DNA of 64,000 bases, from NCBI GenBank assembly GCA_021613535.1, contig CP075495.1:14322001-14386000 (forward strand), given 5' to 3'. Position numbers and translations under genes: made by a program. Below the pieces are notes generated by a model that searched no databases, was not told the origin of the DNA, and saw nothing but the letters and a program-made list of their open reading frames with translations. The first letter of the stretch is position 1; the number at the start of each line of letters is the position of its first letter. This stretch comes from Adineta vaga (lineage: Eukaryota > Animalia > Rotifera). Below, in pieces: positions 17,397 to 54,548 of this stretch.

Positions 17397-18594
<1,198 letters not shown>

Positions 18595-25120: not shown

Positions 25121-27634
25121 GAAAATTCCAATGAGAAGAACAATAACAACAAATTCAAAACAAAAGTCATTTTAAGTCACCTTGTTATCATTCGTCAAAT
25201 GGTGACGATGGTAATACTTCATTACCATCTACAATATATATATATATATACATAATCGTATTAGAATAGACACAAGAGAGAAAGAGAAAAGAAGAAAAAA
25301 AAAAGGAAAACCTCATCTATATTTTTAATCTTAATATCACAAAGAAAACATCAGACAGATGAAGCAGATCAAGTTGTCTTAAAAATGCAATATTCTCTTT
25401 TGAAAGAAAATTTTTGTTTCATAGTTTCATATCACTTCTGGATATATACCAGGTTTCTTTTCTATTCGTCTTATATGAAATTTTCAATCTAATGAATGTA
25501 TTAATTATAATTTCTTTTCCTCACGCTACTGAATATTTTTGCTCTAGGTTTAAATAACACACATCGACATTAAAAGAAAATAAATAAATATTAAAGAAAG
25601 AGAAAAAAAAGAAATTTTATATTTATTCTTAGATTTCTGATTTAAAAGACGTGTATTCGTTACTCATGATCAGTTAGGCGAGAGAAAAAAGTTCAAATAA
25701 TGGATTCTGACAAAGAGGAAAACAAACGTAAGAGAGAGAAAAAAGAGAGAAAAAGGAAATCTCACCCTTCGACACTAATCTTTGTGCTCAGGCGAACTAC
25801 TAATGAGCGTTAATGTGTACATGCGCTATTCAATCAAATTACTTTCAGTTTTTTTCCGCTATTGATGGAGTTTACCTGAAATTCTAAATGAAATATCATC
25901 AAAAAAAGACACTAAACTGAGAAAATGAATAAACAATATACAAATAAATTGTTAACTCATTAATATTTCTTCACACTTGCCCTGCATTAATATTTGTGAT
26001 TCGAAAGTAATTGTTATATGTCTATTTTCCTTAACGAAGAAATAGACGAAGGAGGAGAAATATATCTCATCTATTATATTGCATAGAGAAATTACTTCTT
26101 TTTTTTCTGTCTCTCATTCCCTCTCTTAACTAATTTGTTCGTGCACCGTTACACTGTCTATGTAACTAAGAGGAGTTGTGTGTATGTAGGTTTTTCTTCA
26201 TCTATAACAGTTTGTTGTTTTGCCGTTTTTTTTCATTCTCAGGTCTGCTAGAAAAGTGGTTGTAATAGTGTTTAAGAGAAGCATTACCGATGAGAACTGT
26301 TACACCGGCACATTTCATTAGAAATATCACAGGTGAAAGAAGAAAAAGAAGAAGTGTAAAATAGTGGAAAATTAATTGTGATATTCTATGTCTTCTTAAC
26401 TCTCTGCTGATCTGTCAAAAGCTTGTATACGTCTATAGCTTCGATTGAATAAGTAAAAAAAAAAGAAAAATAGTTCATAGTCAAAAATCTTAATGATTTA
26501 CATGATTATATTTACACATAGATATCAATAGTTTTCTCCGATGTTTATTTTGGTTTACATTAATGAGAAAGTAGCATAAGTAATTTCCCTTTTTTCTTTT
26601 TTTTACCTTGTATACTTGAAAAAAAATAATATATATATTCGAAAACTGTGTCTATTCAAATAGGCGATCTCTTTTTTTTCTATGGAAAATCTTATTGAAT
26701 ATTTCATAAAGTGTAACGTTACATAGAGGATGTGAAAGAGAAGAGAGAAAAAGCTCGATCTAGATTAATAAATCGAGTTGTGAATAAAAAAAGCAACTTA
26801 GTATAACTTGTATAATGTAGTGATCGAGAATCTTCATTGACAACAAGTAATGTATGTGTCAGCTAGAATTAGTTATTGCGCCTCATAAAATTTGGAAACT
26901 AAGTAGTATAGTTGAAGGAAGAATAACTCTGAAAACTTAATTTTGTCTAAAATGCGTGGTTTAAGGCGAGAGTAAATGGAACAACTGACAAAAGCTACTA
27001 ATAACAAATAAGAACGAGAGAGAGGGATAGAGAGAGAGAGAAATGAAGAGGAGAAGCTTCACTAACGATCGTAATCAATTTGTCGATACAAAGTCAAACG
27101 AGCGCAACGATGAGAAAAAAATCGAGTCAATCTATACATAGATTTTTACACATAAGTATATTGACAGACATAAAATGGAAAGAAAGTATGAAAAAAGATA
27201 AAAAAAACAAGTTTTGATTAGAAAATCAGTTTTTTTTCTCATGAGCAAATAATAACTAAAAACAATTAGAAACAAATTTCAATGATTCTATTTCAAGCGA
27301 TTAGAAAAATCTTAGTTATAAGGTTTTTCGTTAAATCCTCTAAGATATGTTGTCGTTTCTTGTTGACAATTCTTTGAATCATTTTCTAAGACTGAAGTTT
27401 ATTGTTTTTTTGTTGTGCATTCTGTTTTGTGTCTCTTTCTTTAAGTATCTTATCTAGATTCTTGTTGAAATTGATCACATCAACAATAATAATAATAATA
27501 ATAATAACAGGAGAGAAGCAAAAAAAAATTGACATGATTATTATGCTATATTTTTTCGTTAACACTGTGGTGTATTCTATTAGAATTAGTAATTGATTTT
27601 CCGGCGAATGTCGCATTTGGATCTTGTTGTTGTT

Positions 27635-31351: not shown

Positions 31352-32449
31352 TTAAATTTGTTTTTTCAGAGTTTTTTCTTTAGGTGGAATTGTCGTTTTC
31401 ATTTTGAGTAATCTCGTTTGATTTCGTATTTGTTGATAGGATATACAAGATTGATCATATTGATCCGTAAGATTCTCTGGATGTTCTTTTTCATAATTTC
31501 GTAAAAATAACCATAAACGATTGGCAGCGTCATGTTGATCTTGATGAACTAATTTGATCAATTGATGAATTATCGGTAACCAATTTAATTTGTAACGATC
31601 CCATGCAAAACCAAATGTAATCATTCGTGTTAAATCATATAAACTAAATTTTCTAAAAGATTTATCAAGAATTTCTAAATGTGAATGAAAAAGATCATTC
31701 ATTGATGTAAGAGACACATTAAGAATAATTTCCGATAAATAACCCATATAAGCATCATCTGGTCTTGAACGTAATTTACAATTTTTTGGAAAAGTTTCTA
31801 AAACAACATGTGGATGAAGTAATTGAAGTAAAGCACGAGAATAACATACACCAGCACCATATGTTGCAAATTGATATGTTCGATTAGTATTACTAACTTT
31901 TACACCTTTCGGAACACTTGTTCGACCAATATAATAAGGTTTGGAAGAATTAAATTGTGAAATATATTGATATAAATTATCTAAATTAATATATTGATCA
32001 TCATCAAATCGACACATCCATTGTAAATCTGATCGTGTGGTAGAAAATAATTTATAGAATAATTCAAATTCATGCGCTGTTTTACAACATAAATCAAATA
32101 TATTATGTGTTGTTGGACAATTTGTTTGTATAACATGTCGAAATGAATTCCATATTGATGAATTTGTTTGATTAGAAATATTGTCTGTTGTTAAATATAT
32201 ATTTGATTGTTTTGAATAATCTGTTGATATCCAACTTTGAAGAAGATATTTTAAACGTGATTGACAATTTTCTGATGTACGAATAATCAATAATATTCGA
32301 TCAGCAATTTCGCGTGATCGATCAATAAATCGAGATGAATGTGAACGATAATTTGTAATAGAAATAAATAGAAATGATGCACTAATGGATAAAAATAAAG
32401 ATATTATTAGACGAATATATAATTTTGAAAGATAGAAACTACGTTGCAT
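31352..32449 (-). CDS. Fringe-like beta-1,3-N-acetylglucosaminyltransferase (GT31), intronless CDS, type II membrane protein
   Basis: N-terminal TM (LIISLFLSISASFLFISI), LCCKTAHEF, WMCRFDDDQYIN (DxD), YIGR, FATYGAGVCYSR, PDDAYMGY, FHSHLE. Probable ATG at 32449 (MQRSF). Confidence 0.88.
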   Translation of the reverse strand: MQRSFYLSKLYIRLIISLFLSISASFLFISITNYRSHSSRFIDRSREIADRILLIIRTSENCQSRLKYLLQSWISTDYSKQSNIYLTTDNISNQTNSSIWNSFRHVIQTNCPTTHNIFDLCCKTAHEFELFYKLFSTTRSDLQWMCRFDDDQYINLDNLYQYISQFNSSKPYYIGRTSVPKGVKVSNTNRTYQFATYGAGVCYSRALLQLLHPHVVLETFPKNCKLRSRPDDAYMGYLSEIILNVSLTSMNDLFHSHLEILDKSFRKFSLYDLTRMITFGFAWDRYKLNWLPIIHQLIKLVHQDQHDAANRLWLFLRNYEKEHPENLTDQYDQSCISYQQIRNQTRLLKMKTTIPPKEKTLKKQI

Positions 32450-34302
32450 TATTTTAAAACTAAAATAAATAAAACAATCAGAAATAACTTTTTTGAAAAA
32501 CAATAAAAATATGATTGTAACAAAAATTCTCTTGATGAAAAGAAGTAGAATAAACTGTTGTTTTTTTTTTAACGTCTTCTTGTGTAAGATGAAGCCAAAT
32601 ATACTCGATTATAATGTGCAGATGATTTCATTTACATTTCTCCAAGGTTTCCGAATAGAAATGAATATTTTTTAATAAAAATCTATATTATTATAAAAGA
32701 TCTATGTATTTCAAAATGACTATTCATAAACAAATTGTTACACAAAATCAACTGTCTACTACTTATTTCAACTATATAATGCTTGACTAAAATATTCATA
32801 TGAATTATATTTTTAGAGATCAAAAGATTTTCTGCATGAATAGAATTCTCCTTTCAATGACATTTTAAATCATGAGATAAATTAGAAATTTTGATAGGAA
32901 ACATAAGAAACAATGAAAGATGATTAAAATGTAAATTCGTATGATAGTTTTTTTTTCAATCACTTATCGAGAGGTGATATGTATGTTAGGACAATATTAG
33001 AATAGAATGTCAGTCGAACAACACAGTTAAAGAACTTCTGAGAAAACATCATGAAATTCTTTTTCGTAAAAATTCTCGGTATTAGTTCATCGTAAAAGAG
33101 AACGAGAAAATCTGAATCTATCGATTTCTATGTAATAAGCTTTACTTACCTGAAAAAAAGAAAGAAAAAAAAATTCGTTGTTATTAACGATAGTTTGATT
33201 TCGAACTTTTCTATAATATGAATTTGATGTTCTGTTTTGTTTTATAATCGTCTAGATCGTGACAAACGCATTCGCATCTTTCTCAACGCATCATAATAAC
33301 GAATCATTTTCTACATTATCCTGCCGCATTTCAATGTATCTTCAAGAAAAGAACAAATCATAAAACTTTCAATCAACGATCTGAATGTTTGATACGACTT
33401 CTTTCTTTCTTTCTTTCTTTCTTTTTTCTCTATTCTTCTTCAATCGGTTTCATATAACCGTAAATATAACAGACAAATGCGAAGACAGTTGTTCATCTTT
33501 CTGATAATAATTTATTTCACAAGAAGAAGAAAAAACACGTACTCGATTGATTCAACATTTGAATTTCTTCGATCGATAACGAATTGTTACTTGCATGTTT
33601 CTTTTCACACAGTCAAACGAAGCATTGAAAAAAGAGGACATTTAAAGGTAATGCTTTTTGATCAAACACTCAAAATGTTATTCTATGAAATTTTCAAAAG
33701 CAAACAATCGAACACTCCTTGACTCATGCGACTTTCAGAGAGAATAGATATAACTGAAAAAGAAACACATCAAAAGGTTTCAAAATGTAAGAAATCCTTC
33801 TAGATTGAGGACATTTTAGTGCATTTTTTTAATCACAAGAACAGGACGTGTTCGACATTGAAATTCATGTGTTCTTTCAATAGTAAAAACAAATTGAATA
33901 TGTGAAATGCACAAAAGAACTGTGTTTTTTAATAATTAATTAATGAGAGAGTACTCAACAAGCGAATATTTGGGTACTTTTAATTTATAATATATCGATC
34001 GTATTATTTACAATTCTTAGTTTTAAATTCGATGTAATATTAAAAATAGATGAAGAAACAACGGAATCATTTGCGTTCAGTCCGACGAGAGATATTCTCG
34101 TTCTTTTAAATAATGGACAAATATTTGACGTCTGAATTTTCTTTTCTTACGAATTTTATCATGGCTCGAAACCATAAATGATTAATAACAAAAGAAAACG
34201 AAGCTATTAGTATTGAAGGTAATCGTCATTCTCTATGTGTGATTATTAAATGATTACAACATCATAATTATCAATGAAACCATTCACTTAAAGCATAAAA
34301 TG

Positions 34303-36219: not shown

Positions 36220-36714
36220 CAGAATATTATGACTAGTTGAAGCGATGGATCCAATCTAATGATACAGTTCGAGAGAGCCCATCAAGTTGTACTAGAATAT
36301 GTACTAACATAACACAGGAAAAACATTCTTCAGAAGAAAGGTCCGTAACTCGGAAGGTTGGCTAATTTCAACAGATATATGCGTATGCAGACAAAAGAAA
36401 ATTTGTTCGTATAGTTTTGATAAACTGATTCCGGCGAACTCTATGCACTTTTTCAGATACGTCTCTGATTATGGATCTCAGTTAAGTAGGAAAACTCCAA
36501 TTTCCTTCTTCAAGAATTACTATAACATAATCAGACGACAACAGTCAATTTTTGCATAAGCTTAGTAATTAGCCAATCTTCAATGTCATAGATAGTTATT
36601 CTGAGGAATGTTTTTCCTGTATTATATTTGTTGATATTCTTGTACAATTTGATACGCTCTCTCTAACTATACCAAGAGATTGAATTGATCGCTTCAACTA
36701 GTCATAATATTCTG
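36220..36714. mobile_element. ~495-bp degenerate foldback/MITE with ~150-bp imperfect inverted arms
   Basis: CAGAATATTATGACTAGTTGAAGCGAT at 36220 versus ATCGCTTCAACTAGTCATAATATTCTG ending 36714. Complementarity continues inward (ACAGGAAAAACATTC/GAATGTTTTTCCTGT; TTGGCTAATT/AATTAGCCAA). No clear TSD. Confidence 0.7.
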
Positions 36715-36835
36715 AGTAGCTGCCTAATTATAGTTATAATTATAAATGGAAATTCATTCATACATATATATCTATATCTATACACAGATCCAGATCCAGA
36801 TATACATTTATAGCTATATATATCTATATATAAAT

Positions 36836-37015
36836 ATACCTCACCCATGTTATGTTTAGGAATATAGGAATAGATTTAGTTTCATTTATATGTATATATA
36901 TACAGATATACATACCTCACCCCTGTTAGTTGCAGGTATGTAGGAATAGATTTAGTTTCATTTATATATATGCATACCTCACCCATGTAGATTGCAGGAA
37001 TATAAGAATTGACTT
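36836..37015. repeat. Three degenerate ~62-76 bp tandem units
   Basis: ATACCTCACCC(A/C)TGT...AGG(A/T)AT(A/G)TAGGAATAGATTTAGTTTCATTTATAT at 36836 and 36912, with a more diverged third copy at 36974. Confidence 0.75.
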
Positions 37016-37240
37016 TGTTTTATATGTGGGTGACAGTTGACATGAAGAATGAGTTTATATTGAAATGCAGAAAAAAATAGAAACAGAAAAGAGAAACGAA
37101 AGTTAAATGTTGACAAAGATTCGAAAATGAAAGGCCGAATAAAAATAAAATAGATTTTTTGTCGGTAGATATGTCTGATTCGAATGGATTATTATCAGAA
37201 TAGTATGAATGGATTGTTTCAAAAATATACTGTCGTTCAT

Positions 37241-38945
37241 ACGTAAGGGAAGTTGGCACCAGATTCGAGTTTTTTCATTGCCGATTCGCCCACGAACATG
37301 TTCCAAGTGTTCCAACCAGTGTTCCAAGTAGAACTCGACGAGCTCTATCGAATGACACCAAGAAAAACTCTGTAGGTCGAACCAGGCCAGAGAAAACTGC
37401 CAAATACCGGGTTTTTCAAGGGGATTTATACGATTTCAGGAGTAATTCCTCCGCCGATTCGCCTAGGAACATGCTATAAGTGTTCCAATACAGTTCCAAG
37501 TAGAACTCGACGAGCTCTACAAGTTTGTAATTGTGACTTTTTAAATCAGACCCTCTCTTAGCCCTCAAAAATGCCAAAATCCCCCCAAAACCAAGTATTT
37601 CCTTTCCCGATTCGCCTAGACACATGCTCCAGATGTTCCATTTGAGTTCCAAGTAGAACTCGACGAGCTCTACAATTTTGTAATTGGAACTTTTTCAATC
37701 TGACCCTCTCTTACCCCTTCAAAATGCCAAAAACCCACGAGAACCCGAAAAAAGGACTACTTTCTCTCTGGATTCCCCAAAACATGTTCCAACCAGTGTT
37801 CCAACCAGTGTTCCAAGTAGAACTCAACGAGATCTATCGACTGACACCAAGAAAACCTCTATAGGTCAAACCAGACCAAAGAAAACTGCAAAATACCGGG
37901 TTTTTCAAGGGGATTTATGCGATCTGAGGAGTAATTCCTCCGCCGATTCGCCCAGGAACATGTTCCAATTGTTTCAACCAGTGTTCCAAGTAGAACTCGA
38001 CGAGCTCTACAATTTTGTAATCGTGACTTTTTCAATGAGACCTTCTCTTACCCCTCAAAAATGCCAAACACCCCCCCAAAAACGAGTATTTCCTTTCCCG
38101 ATTCGTCCAGGAACATGTTCCAAGTGTTTCAACTATTGTTCCAAGTAGAATTCAACGAGCTCTATAATTTTGTAGTTGTGACTTTTTCAATGAGACCCTC
38201 TCTTAACCCTTAAAAATGCCGAAAACCCCGCAGAACCCCAAAACCGAGTATTTTCTCTTCGGATTCGTCCAGGAACATGTTCCAAGTGTTTCAACTATTG
38301 TTCCAAGTAGAATTCAACGAGCTCTATAATTTTGTAGTTGTGACTTTTTCAATGAGACCCTCTCTTAACCCTTAAAAATGCCGAAAACCCCGCAGAACCC
38401 CAAAACCGAGTATTTTCTCTTCGGATTCGCCCAGGAACATGTTCCAATTGTTTCAACCAGTGTTCCAAGTACAACTCGATGAGCTCTATCGATTGACACC
38501 AAGAAAACCTCTATAGGTCAAACCAGACCAAAGAAAACTGCAAAATACCGGGTTTTTCAAGGGGATTTATGCGATCTGAGGAGTAATTCCTCCGCCGATT
38601 CGCCCAGGAACATGTTCCAATTGTTTCAACCAGTGTTCCAAGTAGAACTCGACGAGCCCTACAAATCTGTAATGTTGAGTTTTTGAGTCAGACCCTCTCT
38701 TCCCCCCGTAAAATGCAAAAAAACCCAAACCCATAATATTTCCTCTCCCGATTCGCTTATAAACTCTTTCCAGCTGCACTGACATACTTTCCAAGGAGAA
38801 CTCGACGAGATCTATCGACTGACACCAAGAAAACCTTTGTAGGTCAAACCAGACCAGAGAAAACTGCAAAATACAAGATTTTACTGGAGGATTTATAGGA
38901 TCTGGGGAGTAGTTTCTTTACTAATTCGCCTAGGAACAGATTCCA
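37241..38945 (+). repeat. Left terminal inverted arm, ~11 modular units of ~153-174 bp
   Basis: Core CCGATTCGCCCAGGAACATGTTCCAA...GTGTTCCAAGTAGAACTCGACGAGCTCTA near 37281, 37454, 37607, 37770, 37943, 38098, 38260, 38422, 38594, 38748 and 38921, followed by one of two linker types. Confidence 0.92.
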
Positions 38946-39396
38946 ATCAGTGCTCTAAATACAACTTTTTATTAATATCAAATGGTATAGCTTCGTATGA
39001 TTAATTGGATATGACGTTACGTGATATCGAATGTCAGCAGCTCATACATTCCTTATTTTAAAAGTGTTTCCAGATTATTGGCTGTTACTGATCCAGGTAT
39101 CATTTATATACCACGTGGTCTGTTTTAGAAGAAGAGTCTTAAAATTTGTTTTTTTAATACTCAATAATATAATCATACCTACGTAATTCAATAATTGATT
39201 CAAAGTGTTATAAGCAACTTGAGCTGATCGATAGATAGCATATGGTACAGTGTGCTTTAAAGTAAAGTTATGCTATGACATGAAATTCAATTTATTTGAA
39301 TATAAGACCAAGTAGTTTTACAGTGGATCATTCTTAAGAACAAAAAGAGATATTAAACTAATCGTTTTACACATATCTGTCCCTCTTGGAAAGTTG

Positions 39397-39569
39397 TATA
39401 TAAACTCAATGATAGCCGTTCATTTCATCATTCCATTCCTTCTTACACGTCTTATTACATTGATTCATTGCTTCTAATGTGCGTCTAGCTATTTCGTTTT
39501 CATTTCGAATCCGTAAGTTATTTTTTTAATTTTCTTCGTTCAATATTAACATCGTATATACATACATAG
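39397..39569 (+). promoter_or_regulatory. Putative Pol II promoter and 5'UTR intron of the env-like gene
   Basis: TATATAAA at 39397-39404; Inr-like TCATT ~25-30 nt downstream; 57-nt GTAAGT...CATAG intron at 39513-39569 ending 17 nt before the ATG at 39587. Confidence 0.6.
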
Positions 39570-39586
39570 ATAATACAATTATCATC

Positions 39587-41604
39587 ATGTGGATAATTGC
39601 ACATCGTCATTCAATATTTCTTCTCGTCAACGTAATGTTTAATCTAGTGACAGACATTCACTCGATTCCAACTACTGTTTCATCGCTTAGTCAATCAACA
39701 GATAGTATTTATAATCAGTTAATTAACGGACAGAATTTGATTGTTCATGAGCAAAGTGGAGTTATTTTTAATCGAGTTGGATATTATTACGAAATAGACG
39801 ATATATTCGGGCTAACTGTAACCGTACCTGTTACTCAATATCTTTGCCCTATTTTACCTATGGAGCAAGTAGAAAAATTGAGGCTATGTGTTGATTATCA
39901 GGAATCATTTCGTAGTAAACTTGACCAGGAAGACGTTTCAAGTCATTCTTCACTCTTTGACTTTTTGAATTCGACTAATAGCACTCGATTTTCTGCCGAA
40001 AAAATACCTATCAAAACTCGTCATCATCATCATCATCGTATTAAACGCGCGTTACCAATAATTATTGGTGTTGCATTAGGCGCTTTCAGATTACTTTTTT
40101 AGGAGGTATGACAATGTATAACACAATAAAAGAAGCGCAGTTGAGTAATCGTGTGTCACAGATTCAACAATATGTTTCTGAAACGAACAAGCAGCTACAT
40201 AGTTTAGAAGTTTCTGTATTAACTAATACGAACAGTACAGTTCAACTAGCACGCTCATTTAATACGGCTCAAGAAAACATGGAGAATATGCGAACTACCA
40301 TGGAAACTATTGTTAAACATGTTTCCCGCCTCGATTATTTTGCCGAGGCACAAACACGCTATAATTTGAAAACGCATGCAGCACATGTTTATGAAAGTAT
40401 AAAAAATTCTATGCGTCGTATTGAGCGCAACGATTTGAACTTGGACTTCGTCGGAATGACAGAACAAAATGAGATTATCGAAATCGCATATCATCGTCTG
40501 AAGAATTCGGTACCCAGTGCTCGAGAATCAAAGGCCACATTTGTATCGCGCATGCTTTTTGCGCAGACAGTGCAGTTTTTTCCATCAGAAAATTTTACAC
40601 ACAGAAACGAAACTATGGAATATTATCCACAACACCTCGGTAATGTTGTATTTACATGTTATTTTTCAGTTCTTAAGACTAATGCTTTTGATAAGATGCA
40701 GATTTATAAACTTATCGCCTTGCCGTTCTTTACCGCTAAGGAAGAATTCGGAAACGAACTTTTTGGATTGCCAAAAATAATAGGCGTATCCAGTGGTGGA
40801 TACATTGAATGGCGAGAAATTGCTCAACAATCAGTATGCGATTTTGGAGATTATACAGTTTGTCGAGATCCGCCCATTGTTCAGAAACGCATTAATAACA
40901 TGTGCTTAGAACAGTTAATTTCTACCAAACGTTCATTTCACTGTCGAGTTCAAAAATCTACTTACTCTTCTCCGTATTTTCAGAAAATAGCCTCTAATAT
41001 AATAGCATTATCAACTAGAACACCGCTAAAGTGCACCACAACTGGAGGTTATCACACTTTCACAAACTTGAGCATAGTTCGTATGGATTGTAATGATACT
41101 TTTTACTGTGAGGGTAACATAAACTTTATCGGAGACAAGCGCTGTAAGACACTGGAACCATATATTATAAAAACAATAAATGAAGAAGTTATTCCAGTAA
41201 TTGATTCGATTCGTCCGCTAAATATTAGTCTACCCAAAGTTTATCCATTTGCTTCAGATAAAAATCTGGTACTCACTTTAGAAGAGCAAATGAGAATTCA
41301 AGAAAAGAATATAATAGAAACAGAAAAAACCGGTAACAATCTGTTGCAACTAGCAAATCTAAGTACAACAAGACCTACAGTAGTCATCATCATTGTTGCG
41401 GTCAGTGTTCTTGCTATATTGATCATTCTCGTCGCGATCTTTTTCATCTATCGATGTCGTCGGAACGGCAGCACATCTCCTACATCAATCGTGAACATTG
41501 ATACTACAGCAAATCATCCGATTAAATCAACATCAACAGCAACACAAGAGAATTTTGGCAGCCTTTATGACCTGTTATCAGCATTTGCCAAAAACAAAAA
41601 ATAA
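39587..41604 (+). CDS. Class I viral-type fusion glycoprotein (env/F-like), ~672 aa if a 1-nt frameshift at ~40085-40101 is repaired
   Basis: Hydrophobic N-terminus (signal-like); furin site RIKR (40037-40048) directly followed by ALPIIIGVALGAF; heptad-like segment LSNRVSQIQQYVSETNKQLHSLE...; Cys-rich ectodomain with several N-X-S/T sequons; second helical segment LTLEEQMRIQEKNI; TM VVIIIVAVSVLAILIILVAIFFIY; juxtamembrane RCRR; tail with YDLL. ORFs 39587-40102 and 40108-41604 differ by a -1 frame. Confidence 0.82.
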
Positions 41605-41675
41605 ATAAATAAATTGAATATTATCCTGTTATATGTCTTGTTTCATATTTGTTTCTGTAATCTGTTTCTTTTTGT
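41600..41675 (+). terminator. Poly(A) signals of the env-like gene
   Basis: Overlapping AATAAA motifs (AATAAATAAATAAA) at the stop codon, followed by a GT/T-rich tract (TGTCTTGTTTC...TTTGTTTCTG). Confidence 0.6.
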
Positions 41676-42177
41676 TCATTCGTTATTCATAAAATATTAA
41701 CTGGCTTACTCAACGCTAATTTTTCAGCATATCATTCTGTCCTACTGTTTCGTATCTCCACGAAGCTACCATCACAATTCAAATCAGAATAAGTTTTAGA
41801 GCAGGTAATTAAGATAGATAGCGTTCACCAAGAGATTCAAAACATCTATCATATATAACGATACCGATGATGAGAAAAATATTCACGAGGAATCTTCGTT
41901 TAAATAATAAACAAATATATATTACCACGTACAACGGATATGACATTCGAAGTATTGGCATCTTATACATCGTATTAGAAAGTACTGATCTAAGAGGCAC
42001 TTAACATTATCTACGAACAGACGCCACCGATTAGTTTCAGGAGCTCACTTGAAACAGTTTCGGAAACGGCTATGGCACAGCTATGTTAAACAGATTCAAG
42101 CTTTTAGAGGCTAAAAAATAACATTTTTGGATTCTCTTTGATATGGTTTGAACTCTGGAATATCTGAGGACATCATT

Positions 42178-43428
42178 CTATAGAGCTCGTCGAGTTCTAC
42201 TTGGAACACTGGTTGAAACACTTGGAACATGTTCCTAGGCGAATCGGGAAACGAATTACCTCAAGATCCTAGTGAAAATCCTGTAATTTGCAGTTTTCTC
42301 TAGTCTGGTTTGACCTATAGAGTTTTGCTTGGTGTCAATCGATAGAGCTCATCGAGTTGTACTTGGAACACTGGTTGAAACAATTGGAACATGTTCCTGG
42401 GCGAATCCGAAGAGAAAATACTCGGTTTTGGGGTTCTGCGGGGTTTTCGGCATTTTTAAGGGTTAAGAGAGGGTCTCATTGAAAAAGTCACAACTACAAA
42501 ATTATAGAGCTCGTTGAATTCTACTTGGAACAATAGTTGAAACACTTGGAACATGTTCCTGGACGAATCGGGAAAGGAAATACTCGTTTTTGGGGGGGTG
42601 TTTGGCATTTTTGAGGGGTAAGAGAAGGTCTCATTGAAAAAGTCACAATTACAAAATTGTAGAGCTCGTCGAGTTCTACTTGGAACACTGGTTGAAACAA
42701 TTGGAACATGTTCCTGGGCGAATCGGCGGAGGAATTACTCCTCAGATCGCATAAATCCCCTTGAAAAACCCGGTATTTTGCAGTTTTCTTTGGTCTGGTT
42801 TGACCTACAAAGGTTTTCTTGGTGTCAGTCGATAGATCTCGTTGAGTTCTACTTGGAACACTGGTTGGAACACTGGTTGGAACATGTTTTGGGGAATCCA
42901 GAGAGAAAGTAGTCCTTTTTTCGGGTTCTCGTGGGTTTTTGGCATTTTTGAGGGCTAAGAGAGGGTCAGATTGAAAAAGTTCCAATTACAAAATTGTAGA
43001 GCTCGTCGAGTTCTACTTGGAACTCAAATGGAACATCTGGAACATGTGTCTAGGCGAATCGGGAAAGGAAATACTTGGTTTTGGGGGGATTTTGGCATTT
43101 TTGAGGGCTAAGAGAGGGTCTGATTTAAAAAGTCACAATTACAAACTTGTAGAGCTCGTCGAGTTCTACTTGTAACTGTATTGGAACACTTATAGCATGT
43201 TCCTAGGCGAATCGGCGGAGGAATTACTCCTGAAATCGTATAAATCCCCTTGAAAAACCCGGTATTTGGCAGTTTTCTCTGGCCTGGTTCGACCTACAGA
43301 GTTTTTCTTGGTGTCATTCGATAGAGCTCGTCGAGTTCTACTTGGAACACTGGTTGGAACACTTGGAACATGTTCGTGGGCGAATCGGCAATGAAAAAAC
43401 TCGAATCTGGTGCCAACTTCCCTTACGT
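42178..43428 (-). repeat. Right terminal inverted arm, ~8 modular units
   Basis: Near-identical reverse complement of the left arm (37684-38148 mirrors 42985-42521, both 443 nt from their ends). Lacks one of the two 162-bp units duplicated on the left and diverges inward of ~42290. Confidence 0.92.
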
Positions 43429-43997
43429 GTCGTTCATACTGGTTTCTTTTTACGAAAGAATATTTTCGTTTTCGATATATTTGTTAGGTTATATATAAAA
43501 TATATTCCTAGAGATTTCGTTTGACTGATAGTTATAAACGAACTGTTGATGAAAGAGTGTATTTCAAAATATTTTTATGTATTGTATCTACCTGATTGTT
43601 TGTCTTAATACAGAAGGAAAGAAAATTTGATGTCCCGCACATCCTGTTTAGAGAAGAAATCTCTTTCTTTCAATATAAAATTCAATGTCTCGCATGTCCC
43701 GCTCATAAAAAAATCTATCTATTTTTTTTGCAAAACTAATTCTCTCTCTTTCTCTTTTCTATTTTCATAAATTTTCGATGTCCCATACATAAAACACCTG
43801 TCTACTTATACAAAAATCAACATCCTCTTTATAAAACAATCATTTAACGATTCATAACTTAATTAAGTAGATTATAATTGTTTTCTTTAACTTTAATATA
43901 CAATTATCAATTCTATTTTTCCTCTCTACAAATAAAAATATAGATTTAGATAGTAGTTTTCTATATTCCAATCTCAACTAAATTCCCTAATCGACTG

Positions 43998-44152
43998 CCA
44001 CATATAGTTAGTGAGACTGTGTATGTGGTGACCAAATTCATATCAACGAACAGATCTTGGTGTACAGTCAGTGAAACTGTGTATCTGGCGACCACATACA
44101 CAGTCTCACTGACTATATATTAAGATCTGTTCATTGACATGAATCTGGTCAC
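43998..44152. repeat. Nested short inverted/direct repeats, transposon remnant-like
   Basis: TAGTTAGTGAGACTGTGTATGTGGT / ACCACATACACAGTCTCACTGACTA and GTGACCAAATTCATATCAACGAACAGATCTT / AAGATCTGTTCATTGACATGAATCTGGTCAC, plus a third direct copy CAGTGAAACTGTGTATCTGG. Confidence 0.7.
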
Positions 44153-44694
44153 TTGATGAATGGTCAGTTTGAGTTAGGTTTTGGGCTGAGATCCTTGATC
44201 AGTGATGATACGATGGATGGATGATATATATTTTATCAAGAAAAGTCCCTACATGAAAGTCCCTAAGTCAAAAAGTCCCTATCTGTTCACCAGAATCAGC
44301 AATTATGGACTTATCGTCCCTACGTAGGGACTAATGTACTGATGTTTCTGGGGACCAGAAAGTAGGGCAAAGTATAGTCATCCCTGAATGGTTGAATTTC
44401 TCTTAAAAATAAACTTTTATTCGTCGATGCTTTACTTTATTTTTGTGAATTTAGAATAAATCATCATGAACCAGAACTTCTTTTATATCGTCGTAGTGAT
44501 ATCATATTTTGAAAAGAAAGATTTTATTTTTAGACATTGTCTGTATATATGTTTTGATTTGTTATAAGTACATCTCTTTTTTTCTGTCGTTGAATAAATA
44601 CGAAAGTTATTGAGAGAAATTATTATTATTATAGATGAAGAAATAAGCAAAACAATATTTCAATAATTGAAAATTGATTGAATTAGTTTTGGTT

Positions 44695-47556
44695 TCAGTT
44701 TTTCTTTTTACAACAATATTTCCGACTAACGAATCCAAGACAACATAGAACGCCAAGACCCATTGTTGCATAACCGCCATATCTATATAAATAATTCTTC
44801 ATGAATTTGTTTTCTGAGACAAAGACTAACTTAAGTATTTTTTGTTGTGATTCAGGTAATTTTTCATACCATTGCATAACAGTAAAATTCGATTCTTGAC
44901 CTTTTCCATCATTAAATTCATACTTTTCCTTTTCAGTTGTTGGTGATGGTGGTTCCTATTGAACAAGATTAACAAAGGAAACTTCTCAAAGAATCAATTT
45001 GTTACTATATTCGGTTGTTCTGCAGTTAGAGATTTTCCAGTTAAACCACCTTCAGTAAATATTCTCACAAGAAATTGACCTTCTTTGTCTGATTCATAAG
45101 TCGATGGAATGAGAATATAATTGCCAGGTTTAACACGAAATCGTCCTGTTACTTCACGTTTATTAATATAAGCTCCTGACAAAATTCAATTGAATTCTAT
45201 GAATAAAGAGACGATCTTGTTCTATTCCATTGATTACCTGTATCACCTTGTCGTTCAAGATCTTTTGGATAAAGTTTATATCCTTGTTCAATTTGTGATA
45301 CAATAATTGAATCTTTAATCTATGAATAATATTTCATTGTCTATAGTCAATGAGTTCGTATGTGTTATCAACGAAAAGAGAGAGGGAGACAAACTCGATA
45401 TAAACGTAGATTTATATACTCTTCCGCTTGTTGTACACGAGTTTGTTGGCGTTTTTGACGTGTATATTTTTGTAGACAAGCACAGATCACTGTACAAAGA
45501 CCATCACCACTTTCAATATCAGTTCTTGTTACATTAATTAAGTATTGTGGATTAGTAAAGAAATTTTCTATAAAATCAAATCAATATTTTTTTTCCTAAT
45601 GAAAGATTAAAAACAAAAAAAAATATATCAACCGATTCTGCCTTGTCCACATCCACCTGCTGTTTGTCCTTTGATCCAAGCACCATCGAATTGAGTTTGA
45701 TGCCAAGTAATCAGTTTTCCCTTTTTGAATAGAGTAATACATAGTTATATGGACATTCGATACAGTTTGTACTTACTTGTTGAGCATTGAGTTGTCCTTC
45801 GAATGAATCAGGTGATAGATTACAAATCTGCACTTGTTCGAAATGTTTCAACCAATCTGAATAAAGCATCCTAATTCATAATTTATATCAATCATACAAA
45901 TGAAAATCGATGAATTAACATTCAAATACCAGAATTCTCCATCAGCTTGTTTTTGATAATGTAATTGTTCTCTCGTATGTGTATCTACTTTATTCCAATT
46001 ATTTATATCGCTAATAATGAGAAGAAATAATTATGAAAAAAAAAAGAAATCATATAGTCATACCCATCACTCCAAGCACCATTCCATTCAGCTTCATTAC
46101 CCCATGGATTTCGACAACGAACTAATTGAACTATTTCACCATTTATAAGTTTAACACGAACAGCAGCAGTTACAGCGTATGCATGACCTTTTATAAGACC
46201 ATTTGCCATTTTAGCTTCATGTTCATTTGGATCCGGCTTAAAAAACGAATGAATTACGAGGAAAACTAATTGAAATGTTCGACATACAGTAATTGAACAA
46301 CCAACCATAGCATCATGTTTTAATGCTGTACCCATTGTTTGCCAAAATTGATCTCTGTCCTTTATATCTTTTGTATTGAATGATTCTTCTATTCCTCCTA
46401 GTTAATTACAATAAACTATATAATTGATAATATTTTCGTTGGAAATCATTCACCAGTCATGTCGATTAAAGCATCGGTAGTTTGTCCCGCATCCGTACCT
46501 TCATATGAAAAACTCAGTCTACAAATCAAATACACATCATGAAAAATATTCCTTTCAAAATCGCTTTTCATTGTATGTGTTCTGCTATTTCTCTATTTAT
46601 AACTTTTATATGCAAATTCATGTCATTGCACAATATCAATCAGTAACAGTTTAATAACCATGTCACAGTATACATTCTCTTAATGGTTGGCATATAGCTG
46701 TTCGCTTCCTTCGTAATACACTGGTCCGTATATCAATCTTTCACATTGGAAATCCAGGTTCAATCCCTGGCGAAAAATGAGCGAACGCGCAACCCAGCTA
46801 GTTCTTTTTGCTTTTTGTAAATTTACTTTGCATAAGCTTTTTCAAGTAGAGCGGCCCAAAATTCATTTGATTCTTTTATATTTTGACAAAATATCAATCG
46901 ATTATTTCTTGTTGGCAGATAATCATCGACAACAACATCAACCCATTTTCCAAATTGCCAAAATCGAAAATGAAAGATGCCTATATTCAGAATGAAAAAA
47001 AAAACATTTTAAATCTAGCTGTAGATTCTGAAAAGAGTGAAAAATGATACCAGAATAATATTTCTTATCGAAAGTTTGATCCAGTGGACATACACGTTCA
47101 AATATTGTAGCATTTTGTGTAATCATACTAACAGCAGATATAAACCAACAATTACCTAGGTTCAATTCATAATAGAAAGTTTTCGTTTCAAAAGAAATGC
47201 TTCAATCTACCCAATTGACCTTGATCAAGATCGAATCGATTTGCTTCATTTACAATAAACTGAGGATTTGAACAAATTTCCTACTAATGAACAAATTGAA
47301 ATCAAATTGAACTATGATTGTATACACTTGCATATGGACGTTTCCAAATCACATGATCAAGCATTGAATTAAAACCCAGAGTATAATAGAGTGACGATTT
47401 TGTATTGGCAAATTCACGATCGTTAAAGAGATTTGTAGAATTATATTGTTGTTTTAATTCCGAATATATTTGATTTCTATATGGATGTAAGGTTGTCTTA
47501 AAGATCGAATAAATGAGACTTAGATTTAATTATTTAATCATACATACTTGATTCAT
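44695..47556 (-). CDS. Calpain (CysPc + domain III/C2L) lacking penta-EF-hand, ending in a hydrophobic C-terminal segment
   Basis: [12 protein letters not shown] (Cys), LIKGHAYAV (His), CRNPWG (Asn), [26 protein letters not shown]...YILIPSTY. Final exon EPPSP...[28 protein letters not shown]. Probable ATG at 47556 followed by a GT intron. Confidence 0.9.
46707..46778 (+). tRNA. tRNA-Glu(TTC)-like sequence (probable pseudo-tRNA or tRNA-derived element) in a calpain intron, antisense to calpain
   Basis: TCCTTCG TA ATAC-ACTGGTCC-GTAT A TCAAT-CT TTC AC-ATTGG AAAT CCAGG-TTCAATC-CCTGG CGAAAAA. D, anticodon and T stems pair; the acceptor stem has two C-A mismatches; T5 runs lie ~25-35 nt downstream. 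Confidence 0.65.
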
Positions 47557-49419: not shown

Positions 49420-52400
49420 CTATTCATTGCGTTTTCTAAATGTTGATACAGACTGATTGGATATTCTACTATCATTGTTAGTTGTTGTTTGTTCATTCGT
49501 AGATTTTGAACTATTTGATTCAGTTGTTTTCTTCCGTTCCATTTGATTTATCAATCGTTCAATTGATAAACTCATCTGAAATGATAAAACACCGTTTAAT
49601 TTACAAGAAAACAGATATTTTATAAAAAGAAATCTATCTACTTGATCTAATCGACTTTCCATTCTTGAATTACTCTAAAATAACAAAAGATAAATGCATT
49701 TCTTGAACATATATAATATAAATATCGTACGTGTTCGAAACTTTTTTGTGTTTCATTAGTAACTGTTTTAAAAGCTATCAAGATTTCTTCTTTAACACTT
49801 CCTATTGTTTGATGTTGTTGTTCCGTAGTTGGTTTTGCTACACTAGAGCTATAGACACCAATATAGTTACAATTCATTTCATGGACAGAGAAATTCAATT
49901 TACTCGATCAAATTCATTGCTCTTCTTGGTTTATCATCATCGATTGTTGAAACATCTTTATTTCTATCTTTCTCTAATACGGATCGAGCATAACCATATG
50001 TTGCAGCATTTTCAAATAGATCCCAACGTTCATTTTGTGAATTTTTTAATGGAATCATTTCTAAATAAATATTGATCAACATAAAATAAAGTAAAGAACA
50101 AATTTCATTCTAATATCTTACTAAAAACAGGTGTAATCCTCTTTAATGTAGATGAAAACACTTCTGGATTGACTTCAGTTTGGCAGAATTTTGCACAAAA
50201 TGTTCGTCGAATACTTAACACAAGTAAACATAGATGTGAAATGAAAATCAATGGAGGATAGGATAATGGTAAACGTTCGAAATATTCACGAACAAATGAA
50301 TAACGTTGATAACGCCAATAAAATTCCGTATTCTCTTGTACTTTAACAATTGAGTCACTAAGTAAAGAAAACAAAATCATTTTTGTGTCATTATCAAATA
50401 TATTTTCGTTTTATATTTACGCAAAAACAGCAACTAAGAGATTAAGTAAAAGAATGTTAATAAACAGCATATGAAATGCTAATAAAACATGTGTTGCCGT
50501 TGCTTCAGCTTGATCTGTTCCTGCATCAGGATTCGTTCGATCTATTCATTAACATGATATTTAGAAAGACATAGAACAAAATTCGACTCACTATCAAGAA
50601 TATCTTTATCCGAAACTGCACCATAAATAAACCAATAAGGTTCATAAAAAATATGACTAAATATTCCACGACCAGTAAATGGAACCTTCTGATAATAAAT
50701 TAATGATCGAGAAACAACTCCATAAGCAGCAATAGCAATGAATATCATATAGACAAAAGCAAATAAATCTCGAAGCTAAAATAACTTATTCGAATTCAAT
50801 ATCTAAATATATCACTCTACTCACCATATTCTTTAACATAAATAATTTTGGACCTAAAAATTTCAACGCCATAACAAATTTTAATGAACGAATATACCAC
50901 ATTTCTAAATCTAATGCCCAAATAATTCTAAACAATAGATTAAATTTATCGTAAATATACTGAAATATTGAACAAACCTTGTCGTAGAGAGTAAACTATC
51001 ATCAAAACGTGCATATCGAAAACCAAGACCCGCATAGAAAAGAAAATAAGGTGTGATATAAAATACATTCGATAAAACGGTTAATATCGATGATCCTGTT
51101 GAACCCCATCGTTCAATCATACGTGCATCGTATTCATAATAAGTCTAGATAAAATAAACAAAGATTTTTGTCTTGAGAAAACCAAAAATATTCTCAAAGT
51201 TTCTTTTTACTTTTCGAACTTCTTCACAGAACATTGTTGAAACAGTAATAATTACATATATTTCAGTCCAATGAATTTCTACAAGACTCCGACTATCAAG
51301 ATGATAGAGCATCATATAACTGAATACCAAGAGAAACCAAATGTAACTAAGCTGAAATTATCCGAGATATGATAGATGAATTTTATGTTATGAGAAATGA
51401 TAAAATATGTTTTCTTACAAAATGATAAAGCATTTTAATCATTGGACTTCCATGAAAATATCGAAAACGTATCCAATAATGTGAACATTGTTCTTCTAAT
51501 TTTTGTTCATCTGTATAATAATTGATTCCTTCTTGAGATAATCTATAAACAAAACAAAAAACATTTCTTTCATGATTATCAAAGCATATTTATTTACTCT
51601 TCATTTTGTTTTTCCTAAAATGAAAAAAAATAAAACGAAATTTTCATATAGTAAAATCAATTTCTATTTACATACATTTGTAGAATATTTTTCTTCTTTT
51701 CGATATGTAATTAAATAAGGTGCAAGTAAACCAAGTGTTAAAACTGATGGAATTTGTGATAAACGTGCTGATGCTTGTCGATTTGTTAAACCAAGTTTAT
51801 CAAACCAAACATGATTCAATGCTTGATCAAAACATGCTGTTTCAAGTAATTTTCCACTTTCACTTGAGATCGCCACCTAAACAAATCTCCTTCTTCTTTA
51901 TTTTGTATGGAATTCACTTTTACCTGCATGCATGTGACATTTCCAAGTAATGGTATTTGTCGTAGAAGTAATTCACAAGCTCGTTCATCATTATATTCAT
52001 AACATTTATCCAAAACAGTTGCTGCATATGTTTCGAATTCTAAGGATTGTATACGAAATTTATCTGTTAGATCAACAGAATGTGATGAATCAGCATATTC
52101 TTTAAATATAGCTGAAGCAATTAATGATGCACAAATACGAGATCGAACATGAAGAAGTAAAACTTTCGCCATTTCAGGCATATCCATGAAAACTGACCAG
52201 AGAAAAAGATCACGTACCATATGATGTTTTGTATATTTAGTTTTTATTAATTTAATTTGATCATGAATACGAATCGATCGTAATTCTTGAACATCTTCAT
52301 ATGATCCACAACAAGTACATACTCGATTACTTAAATCGATTTTAATTCGATTACTAAAACTATCATCTCGAACGGAATAAATTGCACCGAAAAATGATCC

Positions 52401-54548
52401 AACAAGTTTATTTAATTTATAATCAAGTTGTTTAATTGATTCAAGTGGTAATCCACCAAATACGGTTATTACACGATTTTTATGACTCTGAAAAAAAGAA
52501 TTAAAAACAAAAAAACAGAAGATAATGAAAGACAAAATAAAACAAACTGTATTCATTGCATCATAACTTTTGTTATATAAATTGAGAATAATTGCTTGAT
52601 AACTATAAACATCATCTCTTTCAGCTAATGTTAATGGATCAAAACCAGCACTGAGAAAATATTCAACAAATCCGGGACGATTTTTTTCAAGTGATTTTAA
52701 AAATAACATCTTCTGTCGAACGATATCAGCCTAGGAGAAAAGTAAAGCAATGAGATCAATTTGAATGTGTATTGTCTGATATGGTTTACCGTCATAAAAT
52801 CATGTTTTTTCTTGACCATTTCGCCTTGTCGTGCTTGTAAAATTGTTAAAACACCATCGAAATAATTCCATTCGAGTGCTAAATCAACTAATTTATCTTC
52901 ATTATTTCGACGTTGTTTTTCTTGATCGAATAATTCAGTTTCATTCTTTTTATCAGTATCGACACTTTTTTTCTTGTTTTTCGCTACAAAATAGATGAAA
53001 GAGAACAAATGATTTAATAACACACACACACACATATATACCTGTAAATATTGCTTTAAAAATCGTTTCAGCAACATTTTTATCACGATCCAATGAGAAA
53101 ACATGTAGTAAATGACGATGATCTTCTTTTAAAATTTCTTGAATTCGTTTGATAGCTGATGATATTTCCGAATATGGTATATTTGGATAAAATCGATCAA
53201 GTGCTTGTTCAATTTCTTGTCTCGATGGATCCCTAATCAAAGAAATATTTGTTCAGATTAATCGAAATAATATTCATTATCAATTACCAATCTTGTATTC
53301 GATCAGGATTCGATGTTTGTTCAACTAAAGCAGCAAGGACATCAGCTAAACGACCACTACCCTATAGATCAACATAAATTTTATGTAGAATTAAAAAACA
53401 AAAAGTTCGAAATACAAACTTGAATTAAGACAATAGGTCGTTCGCCATTAATATCACTTTCCAGAACTTCAAGAGTTCCTAAACCTCCTTCGACAATGAT
53501 TGTTACTGGATAACCTTTGTAGAAATAATATGCATATTTGATTAATAAATAAGATTATTAATGACAAATGTACATACAGGTATGATTATCATTTCTATCT
53601 CGACATGCTTCCGTAATAAATTGATGTCGTTGTGAATCACTAAGATATTCATTTAATCGACCACTATCGAATAGAATACAATGGGTATGATTTGGTTCTA
53701 TTGTTTCTTTATCTTCTTGGACATTTTCAGGTATTTGTCTTTGACATAATGGTCGTGGAGAACCCTTTTATATAAGAAAATCAAAATTCATATTCTTATC
53801 AAAATGTTTATTTTCATTGAATTAATTTACGTTCGATGCAGTCTTCAGTTCAAGACGTGTATGTTCATTGACTGTTCCCCACATTGTCATTCCAATACAT
53901 TTCACTTTATTCGAATATTCTCGTAATAAACGATAATGTGAAATACCTTCACCAACTAATTTCGAGACACCATTATTTACTCCTGCTGTTAAAATCCATG
54001 CATCTAATATGGATTCACTATTCTTTTAAACAAAATTATTTTCTAATTTTATCTGATTACTTACCAGCCATTGTTGCAGCATCGATTACACCTCGAATAA
54101 ATTCTTTTTCAAGTCGTTCTGTCATCGTAAAATATCTCGCTCCACCATAAACACTAATAATTAAAACAGGTTTTTGATTTCCACCATCTTCAAGAATCAA
54201 TTGAAAAACATCTTTCATTGGCACACGATTATCGATGCGAATAAATTTACATCCATCAGATTTCAATGTTCCATAAACATTAATCGAAATTTTAGTTGAA
54301 TGTGTTGAATTATCTAAAAATTTCAAAGGAGGTTCCCATGATGTACTTCCATTTGCTGCCGCTTTCGATTGTAAACATTCACCAACTAGACTATGTCGAC
54401 GAACCATACGATCACAAGGACATAATTTATCCGGTTCACCATGATAATTTGAATTGACATTGAATATACTACAAGTACGAGATTTAAATTTTGGATCTTC
54501 TTGATAACGAACAATCAGATCGCACCATGAATGACTTCTATCATTCAT
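49420..54548 (-). CDS. TRPM-family cation channel, multi-exon
   Basis: SLOG/MHR motifs PVLIISVYGG, TAGVNNGVSKLVG, EPNHTHCILFD, VEGGLGTL, SGRLAD; LALEWN; RDLFLWSV; six-TM region with LGPKLFML and NILLLNLLVAVF; TRP box YWRYQRY; LSYPPLIFISH; C-terminal coiled-coil. No NUDT9-like or kinase tail seen. Confidence 0.92.

Follow-up and report, generated by a model that had tools for sequence, protein, structure and literature searches.

How did a gene resembling that of a viral fusion glycoprotein come to lie between the inverted arms of a DNA transposon? The question is raised by a locus in a 64,000-nt stretch of the genome of the bdelloid rotifer Adineta vaga (GenBank assembly GCA_021613535.1, contig CP075495.1, positions 14,322,001–14,386,000 of the forward strand). 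This whole stretch, hereafter called the window, is AT-rich animal DNA (approximately 29% GC) whose genes have introns. The element of interest sits in non-coding DNA between a Fringe-like glycosyltransferase gene and a calpain gene, and it carries one gene, designated the F-like gene (F), between two long modular arms. In our assessment, it is likely a non-autonomous copy that arose by deletion within a larger foldback family of bdelloids. This family would stably carry a predicted class I fusogen together with an SGNH esterase, and a transposase of the Mutator type (Rehavkus/NOF-like) would likely move it.

Architecture of the element and its insertion

With the preferred reading of its ends, the element spans positions 37241–43428 (approximately 6.2 kb). 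It is flanked by a 12-nt direct repeat (37231–37242 and 43428–43439), of which there is no further copy within the window. This repeat permits two symmetric readings, namely a target-site duplication (TSD) of 9 bp with the element at 37241–43428, or one of 11 bp with the element at 37242–43427. The 9-bp TSD is favoured because contigs derived from sequencing reads end or diverge at 43428 in all four runs that were compared (X1, X2, X6 and X14; discussed below).

The two ends pair in inverted orientation over 1,087 nt (37241–38327 with 42342–43428), with 16 mismatches and no gaps. Their outermost 255 nt are 100% identical and their outermost 1,020 nt differ at eight positions, and a young insertion therefore fits. 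The left arm extends for approximately 1.7 kb (to approximately 38960) and contains 10 modules, whereas the right arm extends for approximately 1.3 kb (from approximately 42130) and contains eight. The modules are 153–173 nt long and of two types, which are 67–97% alike within a type and approximately 60% alike between types. Each module holds as its core an imperfect 21-nt palindrome, in which 6–9 of 10 pairs are matched; nine matched pairs occur in 6 of the 18 arm cores compared with 14 of 57,679 background windows. These palindromic cores are candidate binding sites for a transposase. Two exact copies of the 16-nt terminus exist in the window (37241, +, and 43428, −), where chance alone would give 0.18. 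A composite of two independent foldback copies was ruled out by the presence of a single terminus per arm.

Mutator/Foldback elements have TSDs of 8–11 bp and long terminal inverted repeats (TIRs) (PMC6446971; here and below, statements on the literature refer to the portions of the cited sources that were available). In the one copy examined here, the TSD falls in this range, and the arms of 1.3–1.7 kb are longer than the 100 bp taken as the lower bound for long TIRs in this superfamily and contain subterminal repeats, as foldback types do. The anatomy fits membership of the Mutator/Foldback group. The initial annotation of the locus, made from the sequence alone, had already called it foldback/MULE-like in view of arms of approximately 1.25–1.7 kb and a clean 9-bp (or 11-bp) TSD, and had read near-identical arms with an intact duplication as a recent insertion. 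Our analysis bears out all of these points. Its description of the terminal inversion as perfect holds for the outer 255 nt and fails further inwards.

Of 24 sequencing runs, 11 contain at least half of the sampled words of 38960–44900. Four runs from four studies were compared over 43270–44600, a range that covers the right junction only, and the best-covering run may itself be the source of the assembly. In X1, X2 and X6, the right junction is bridged by a single 428-nt contig (43400–43827), and a 95-nt terminal contig stops exactly at 43428. The depth of the terminal contig relative to that of the junction contig is 3.9, 3.9 and 4.8 in these runs, respectively, although depth does not equal copy number. 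In X14, two contigs track the arm to 43428 and then enter flanks unlike either flank in the window. Because of the bridging contig in three runs and the alternative flanks in the fourth, we conclude that the right junction is real and that the same element end also occupies other sites. The two alternative flanks are evidence of transposition, in the form of multiple insertion sites.

These data also bear on the possibility that the inverted arms are an artefact of assembly or amplification. Inverted duplications are a known type of artefact, short ones are present at both ends of one related locus described below, and the check with read-derived contigs covers the right junction only. The arms, however, are not identical in sequence and have unequal numbers of modules, the element is bordered on either side by a direct repeat, and the right junction is bridged in three studies. 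An artefact is thus extremely unlikely.

The F-like gene, its relatives and an adjoining esterase

Apart from the two pieces of F, there is no ORF (open reading frame) of at least 110 aa between the arms. No remnant of an esterase or transposase-like gene was found inside the element by tblastn, no DDE transposase (C/D-x2-H, conserved W) in the window copy, and no Rfam match inside the element. The initial annotation had described one env/F-like gene and no long terminal repeats (LTRs), gag, reverse transcriptase (RT), integrase, polB, capsid or transposase. This description stands, with the correction that the gene is frameshifted as assembled. The single frame break falls within the hydrophobic segment that directly follows the RIKR site, and homology of the 3′ piece starts at approximately 40084–40090. 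A programmed frameshift was ruled out, as full-length homologues read through the region and partial records start or stop at scattered places. A conserved stretch upstream of the gene is likely its promoter, judging from its similarity to a related locus and a TATA-like box (Table 1).

The 3′ piece of F has 37 homologues, 36 of which are 54–80% identical to it, and the named ones come from Adineta steineri and Didymodactylos carnosus. Full-length F (approximately 675 aa) is present in 23 of 71 records; the remainder begin or end at scattered places, some of them at contig ends. The intact homologues P0004 and P0005 have an RxKR site near residue 150, a hydrophobic stretch at 152–181, a long predicted helix, 11 cysteines, 10–13 N-glycosylation sequons and a transmembrane (TM) helix at 592–627. 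They thus have the layout of a class I F protein (furin site, hydrophobic segment, heptad helix, cysteines and C-terminal TM helix). An Atlas feature search with P0005 gave Fusion_gly/Baculo_F clusters at 0.96, and the ten best named matches belong to one family or clan. No F relatives were found in a GTDB scan, and no longer, fused F proteins were present among 5,969 candidates, which is weak evidence.

The assignment of F as a class I fusion protein, which the initial annotation had made, is a well-supported prediction in view of the Atlas result, the furin site, the hydrophobic segment and the C-terminal TM helix. Some results count against it. F has no significant sequence match in Pfam or PDB, and no strongly hydrophobic signal peptide rises above the hydropathy threshold at its N-terminus. 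The fold comparison did return viral F proteins, but the matches are weak and were obtained with a poor AlphaFold model (predicted local distance difference test score, pLDDT, of 39.5). The best PDB fold match, metapneumovirus F, has an E value of 0.075 only. From the same low-confidence model, the top viral fold match is a chuvirus glycoprotein (2.7e-5) and not an F protein, with paramyxovirus F0 at 4.5e-4.

A scan of JGI metagenomes gave 82 candidate stretches, from which three loci were fetched; two of them (L002 and L003) are too short for context. The third, L001 (4,571 nt), has an F region that matches the window at 78% identity over 2,345 nt, the conserved upstream stretch included. Approximately 190 nt past its F gene lie 173-nt modules that are homologous to the innermost right-arm module of the window and have the same orientation. 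Upstream of F, on the opposite strand, there is a 313-aa ORF with SGNH motifs (a divergent esterase). Both ORFs are uninterrupted and apparently intronless, whereas the genes of the window are intron-rich. No gag, pol or LTR was found in L001. Comparison with L001 gave ratios of nonsynonymous to synonymous substitution (dN/dS) of 0.22 and 0.23 for the two F pieces; at the sequence level, F behaves as an old, conserved gene of the family under purifying selection.

Two further features of the fetched loci were observed. A 55-nt AT-rich tandem array occupies positions 1–257 of L001, directly downstream of the esterase ORF and at the contig break, and might represent a minisatellite inside the full element. 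In L003, F sequence is duplicated in short inverted stretches at either end of the contig (1–91 and 1601–1684), and these are probably amplification chimeras.

L001 speaks against the idea of a one-off Pack-MULE/Pack-TIR capture (MULE, Mutator-like element), in which an empty foldback element would recently have acquired its env gene, either from a host locus or from an LTR retrotransposon like TelKA. Such an event would agree with the single, broken gene between the arms. Among bdelloid LTR elements, TelKA has a paramyxovirus-like F of approximately 600 aa (PMC5408684), and Pack-TIRs occur in animals (PMC8277862). The idea is largely refuted by L001, whose DNA is 78% identical and where F is accompanied by the same arm module, with no gag, pol or LTR seen. 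F is also under purifying selection and co-diverges with the esterase (discussed below). As a conserved gene of full extent with an arm module next to it in L001, the cargo does not look like a recent short copy of a locus outside transposable elements, and the median cargo of Pack-TIRs is 224 bp (PMC8277862). We therefore regard a one-off capture as very unlikely. The recent Pack-MULE-like capture of a fusogen that the initial annotation had put forward is unsupported because F is old and conserved, the arm module adjoins F in L001 and the esterase travels along. An LTR retrotransposon with an env gene does not describe the locus either, given that the repeats are inverted and that neither the element nor L001 has gag or pol.

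The esterase has 38 homologues, the named ones being from Adineta, Rotaria and Didymodactylos. Its relatives were recognized as SGNH proteins by the Atlas (0.94) and by Foldseek (SGNH matches, E 4e-5); a single GTDB match, an unrelated bacterial protein at 26%, was dropped. Among the 36 F contigs of at least 4.5 kb, 17 match the size of an esterase contig exactly, compared with 0.05 on average and at most 2 in shifted controls. A size match at 1,504 nt was dropped because it is too short for both genes. Six of the 17 size-matched contigs are 8.8–12.2 kb long (8,812, 8,841, 9,175, 10,995, 11,046 and 12,162 nt), a size range that would result if assemblies stopped at the repetitive arms on either side of a unique interior. 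Judged indirectly, by equal contig sizes, F and the esterase are recurrently co-located. The protein distances of F and the esterase are correlated (Mantel test, Spearman rho 0.77, p 2e-4, 12 pairs, with near-duplicates and fragments left out), but three of the 12 pairs are near-identical and shared host ancestry could inflate the correlation. In one sequence cluster, pieces of F and the esterase lie on at least six contigs of 25–124 kb and are mostly partial. Three copies of this cluster that were compared are 5–8% apart in F, and the cluster looks like a recent burst followed by decay.

The conservation of the two genes could also indicate a resident, domesticated pair of host genes (syncytin-like), which the arms merely flank or of which they mobilized F at this locus. 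Conservation across bdelloid genera is strong (dN/dS of approximately 0.22), and bdelloids have syncytial tissues. Against this, several copies are 5–8% apart within one cluster, many records are partial, the arm module adjoins F in L001, and both genes are apparently intronless amid intron-rich genes. Moreover, there is one outer terminus per arm, hence not two elements flanking a gene. A domesticated pair appears quite unlikely.

A fusogen with an esterase would resemble a viral envelope kit, and the element might accordingly be viewed as the remnant of an endogenous enveloped DNA virus or of a Maverick/Polinton-like self-synthesizing element ending in long inverted repeats. Several kb of the 9–12-kb relatives, which is most of their interior, are unread. 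Mavericks/Polintons have 6-bp TSDs, polB, a retroviral-type integrase and capsid genes. In contrast, the TSD here is 9 or 11 bp, no such genes were seen in the window copy or L001, and both a TSD of 9 bp and arms built of modules agree with a Mutator/Foldback element. A search of IMG/VR with F, the esterase, P0096 and two arm motifs found no relatives. Nematode Mavericks do bear a fusogen (10.1101/2022.07.12.499685), but on balance we consider a viral or Maverick-like origin unlikely. The initial annotation had alternatively proposed a deletion derivative of a larger enveloped virus-like DNA transposon. We favour the deletion derivative and not the enveloped virus-like parent, for which no capsid, polB or nucleocapsid gene was seen in the sequence read.

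A candidate transposase, the proposed family and the surrounding DNA

Eight of 168 proteins are mis-spliced gene models in which the esterase runs into a non-esterase tail. Five of them come from Rotaria sp. Silwood1, two from Rotaria sp. Silwood2 and one from Didymodactylos carnosus. Because seven of the tails, from three named taxa, match one another at 53–100% identity, a conserved ORF appears to lie downstream of the esterase in the same direction; the tail of P0097 is linked by a 14-residue match only. The tail contains C-x4-C and a later histidine, and we take it to resemble the N-terminal stretch that precedes the catalytic domain in Mutator transposases of the NOF-FB/Rehavkus type, a resemblance that no search confirmed. 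Didymodactylos has both the F–esterase and the esterase–tail link, on different contigs. Traits given for the Rehavkus/NOF_FB subgroup are its transposase clade, a PHD finger and a minisatellite before the 3′ TIR (PMC6446971). Of the two kinds of gene that the initial annotation wished to look for in other copies, a MULE DDE transposase and capsid/nucleocapsid-like ORFs, the conserved tail ORF is a candidate for the first, with no catalytic domain seen, and none of the second was seen in the sequence read.

Several observations weigh against our interpretation. The tail has no match in Pfam, NCBIfam, PHROGs, PDB or plasmid searches, and its fold model is unusable (pLDDT of approximately 30). 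No catalytic domain of a transposase was seen, where only the N-terminal piece of the candidate ORF was read. F, the esterase and the tail ORF are linked transitively, through the esterase only. Seven of the eight fused models come from Rotaria, and there is no Rotaria-named F homologue among the matches found. The arm module is present in only one of the three fetched F loci, and L001 ends before any terminus or TSD. Nineteen of the 36 larger F contigs are without a size-matched esterase contig. In addition, no empty allele was seen among the read-derived contigs at the right junction in the four runs; the junction contig is unbranched over 43400–43827 in three runs and X14 is without cover at 43450–43719, neither of which bears on the presence of an empty site.

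We nevertheless favour a deletion derivative of a larger foldback family, for which the following model can be drawn. A full element would consist of an arm, the transposase-like ORF and the esterase (both leftward), F (rightward) and the other arm, with approximately 9–12 kb between the arms. A transposase supplied in trans would bind the terminus and the repeated palindromic cores, excise the element and insert it with a 9-nt stagger, a mode of action demonstrated for the foldback MULE Muta1 (PMC5499845). The window copy would have arisen by internal deletion, in which F and its promoter were kept. Because the esterase and the transposase-like gene are lost and the F frame is broken as assembled, the window copy is a passenger under this model. 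Full-length copies would express F under its own promoter, and the protein would then be cut at RxKR and become anchored in a membrane.

More speculatively, F and the esterase might help the DNA or RNA of the element to cross membranes, between cells or between animals, an idea that we put forward tentatively. A similar role was proposed by Rodriguez et al. for the F and GDSL genes of bdelloid LTR elements, where it is untested (PMC5408684). Somewhat more doubtful still is the existence in bdelloids of an infectious cut-and-paste transposon, which would be a Mutator/foldback DDE element of approximately 12–15 kb with its own class I fusogen and SGNH esterase, kept across several genera, and with membrane-bound passage between cells or animals and no known capsid.

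The DNA on both sides of the insertion contains other repeats. An older small inverted-repeat element lies 500 nt to the left (36220–36714), with 148-nt arms that are 80% complementary and 199 nt apart. A faint echo of the arm core is present in it at approximately 36270 (alignment score of 27, compared with a shuffle maximum of 26). Three direct repeats of 62–76 nt with AT-rich spacers are found immediately left of the insertion (36817–37030). To the right, high-copy repetitive DNA at 43585–44400 includes a 61-nt hairpin (44028–44152), and read-contig depth climbs more than 100-fold near 44000; this is probably a cluster of miniature inverted-repeat transposable elements. The other genes listed in Table 1 are ordinary host genes.

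Table 1. Positions of the element, its parts and host genes in the window
Feature	Positions	Strand	Remarks
Left TSD copy (9 bp)	37232–37240	.	Part of the 12-nt direct match 37231–37242
Left arm	37241–38960	+	Unique terminus and 10 modules of 153–173 nt, two types; inner end approximate
Upstream non-coding stretch	39370–39468	+	71% identity over 101 nt to L001; TATA-like box at 39397; likely F promoter
F-like gene, 5′ piece	39587–40102	+	171 aa; N-terminal region, two conserved cysteines, RIKR furin-like site (residues 151–154), start of fusion-peptide-like segment; frame ends
F-like gene, 3′ piece	40045–41604	+	Other frame; heptad-like helix, cysteine-rich region, TM helix, short tail
Polyadenylation-like signals	41600–41613	+	Two AATAAA at gene end
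Right arm	42131–43428	−	Eight modules and the same terminus; innermost module homologous to the 173-nt repeat beside F in L001
Right TSD copy (9 bp)	43429–43437	.	Junction bridged by 428-nt contig 43400–43827 in three studies
Dual-specificity phosphatase	9522–10013		Host gene
AMMECR1	18073–18594		Host gene
Rhodopsin-family G-protein-coupled receptor	24299–25171		Host gene
Fringe-like glycosyltransferase	31352–32608		Host gene
Calpain	44994–46401		Host gene (exons)
TRPM-like channel	51816–52730		Host gene

Comparison with known systems

The element shares with Rehavkus, Drosophila NOF_FB, Tm1 and Muta1 its long TIRs with subterminal tandem modules, its 9-bp TSD, a difference in module number between the arms and the existence of non-autonomous derivatives. 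Rehavkus elements are 5.9–18.5 kb long, with a 9-bp TSD in five of the six tabulated elements of known or listed size (PMC6446971), and their arms have subterminal tandem repeats (PMC12581902). In the foldback MULE Muta1, subterminal repeats strengthen transposase binding (PMC5499845). Further Mutator/Foldback elements used for comparison were Tm1 (PMC3169594), NOF_FB (10.64898/2026.09.13.751287) and Tetris (PMC4079207). In contrast to the family proposed here, no fusogen or esterase is described for Rehavkus, NOF_FB, Tm1 or Muta1 in the available text of these sources. The tabulated hosts of Rehavkus are arthropods and an annelid, with no rotifer among them (PMC6446971), and one tentative foldback-like insertion is on record from bdelloid DNA (PMC2861651).

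The accessory genes are of the same kinds as those of TelKA (env-F), Vesta (GDSL esterase) and the Terminons of Adineta vaga (PMC5408684, PMC6431247). All of those are retroelements, bounded by LTRs or by hammerhead ends; among the LTR elements, F and the esterase occur in different clades. Here, in contrast, the two genes travel as a pair, pointing away from each other, the arms are inverted and there is no RT; the likeness to TelKA is by description only. Nematode Mavericks with MFUS-1 (10.1101/2022.07.12.499685) and Teratorn are likewise TIR-bounded DNA elements with viral envelope machinery, and they are proposed to move between hosts. However, Mavericks have polB, capsids and a class III gB-like fusogen, whereas the element described here has a predicted class I fusogen and foldback ends, with no capsid seen, and it also differs from Teratorn, which is a piggyBac–herpesvirus fusion. 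Cargo between Mutator-type TIRs is found in Pack-MULEs, in animal Pack-TIRs and in the msft-1/tlpr-1 MULE of Caenorhabditis briggsae, in which 870-bp TIRs surround whole genes (10.1101/2022.07.12.499685). Unlike the cargo of these elements, F is a viral-type gene conserved across genera and not a recent host fragment or a toxin–antidote pair.

The literature searched contains no description of F and an esterase within a foldback or Mutator element; Repbase and some primary bdelloid and MULE papers were outside its scope, and a prior database entry is possible. The available text of PMC13524379, PMC6431247, PMC7943196, PMC2861651 and PMC8277862 mentions no such element. Envelope fusogens are known from LTR retroelements and from capsid-encoding Mavericks, and no paper found in the search describes one as a stable gene in a foldback transposon of the cut-and-paste kind. 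If the family does encode its own transposase, it could explain, in a way that can be tested, how active DNA transposons survive and spread in a lineage with little sex, if any, and it would be a candidate vehicle for the exchange of DNA that has been reported in bdelloids. Our interpretation would also imply that a fusogen and an esterase, which bdelloid retroelements recruited separately, were recruited jointly by a DNA transposon. If the element were indeed infectious, it would be the DNA-transposon counterpart of an env-bearing retrotransposon.

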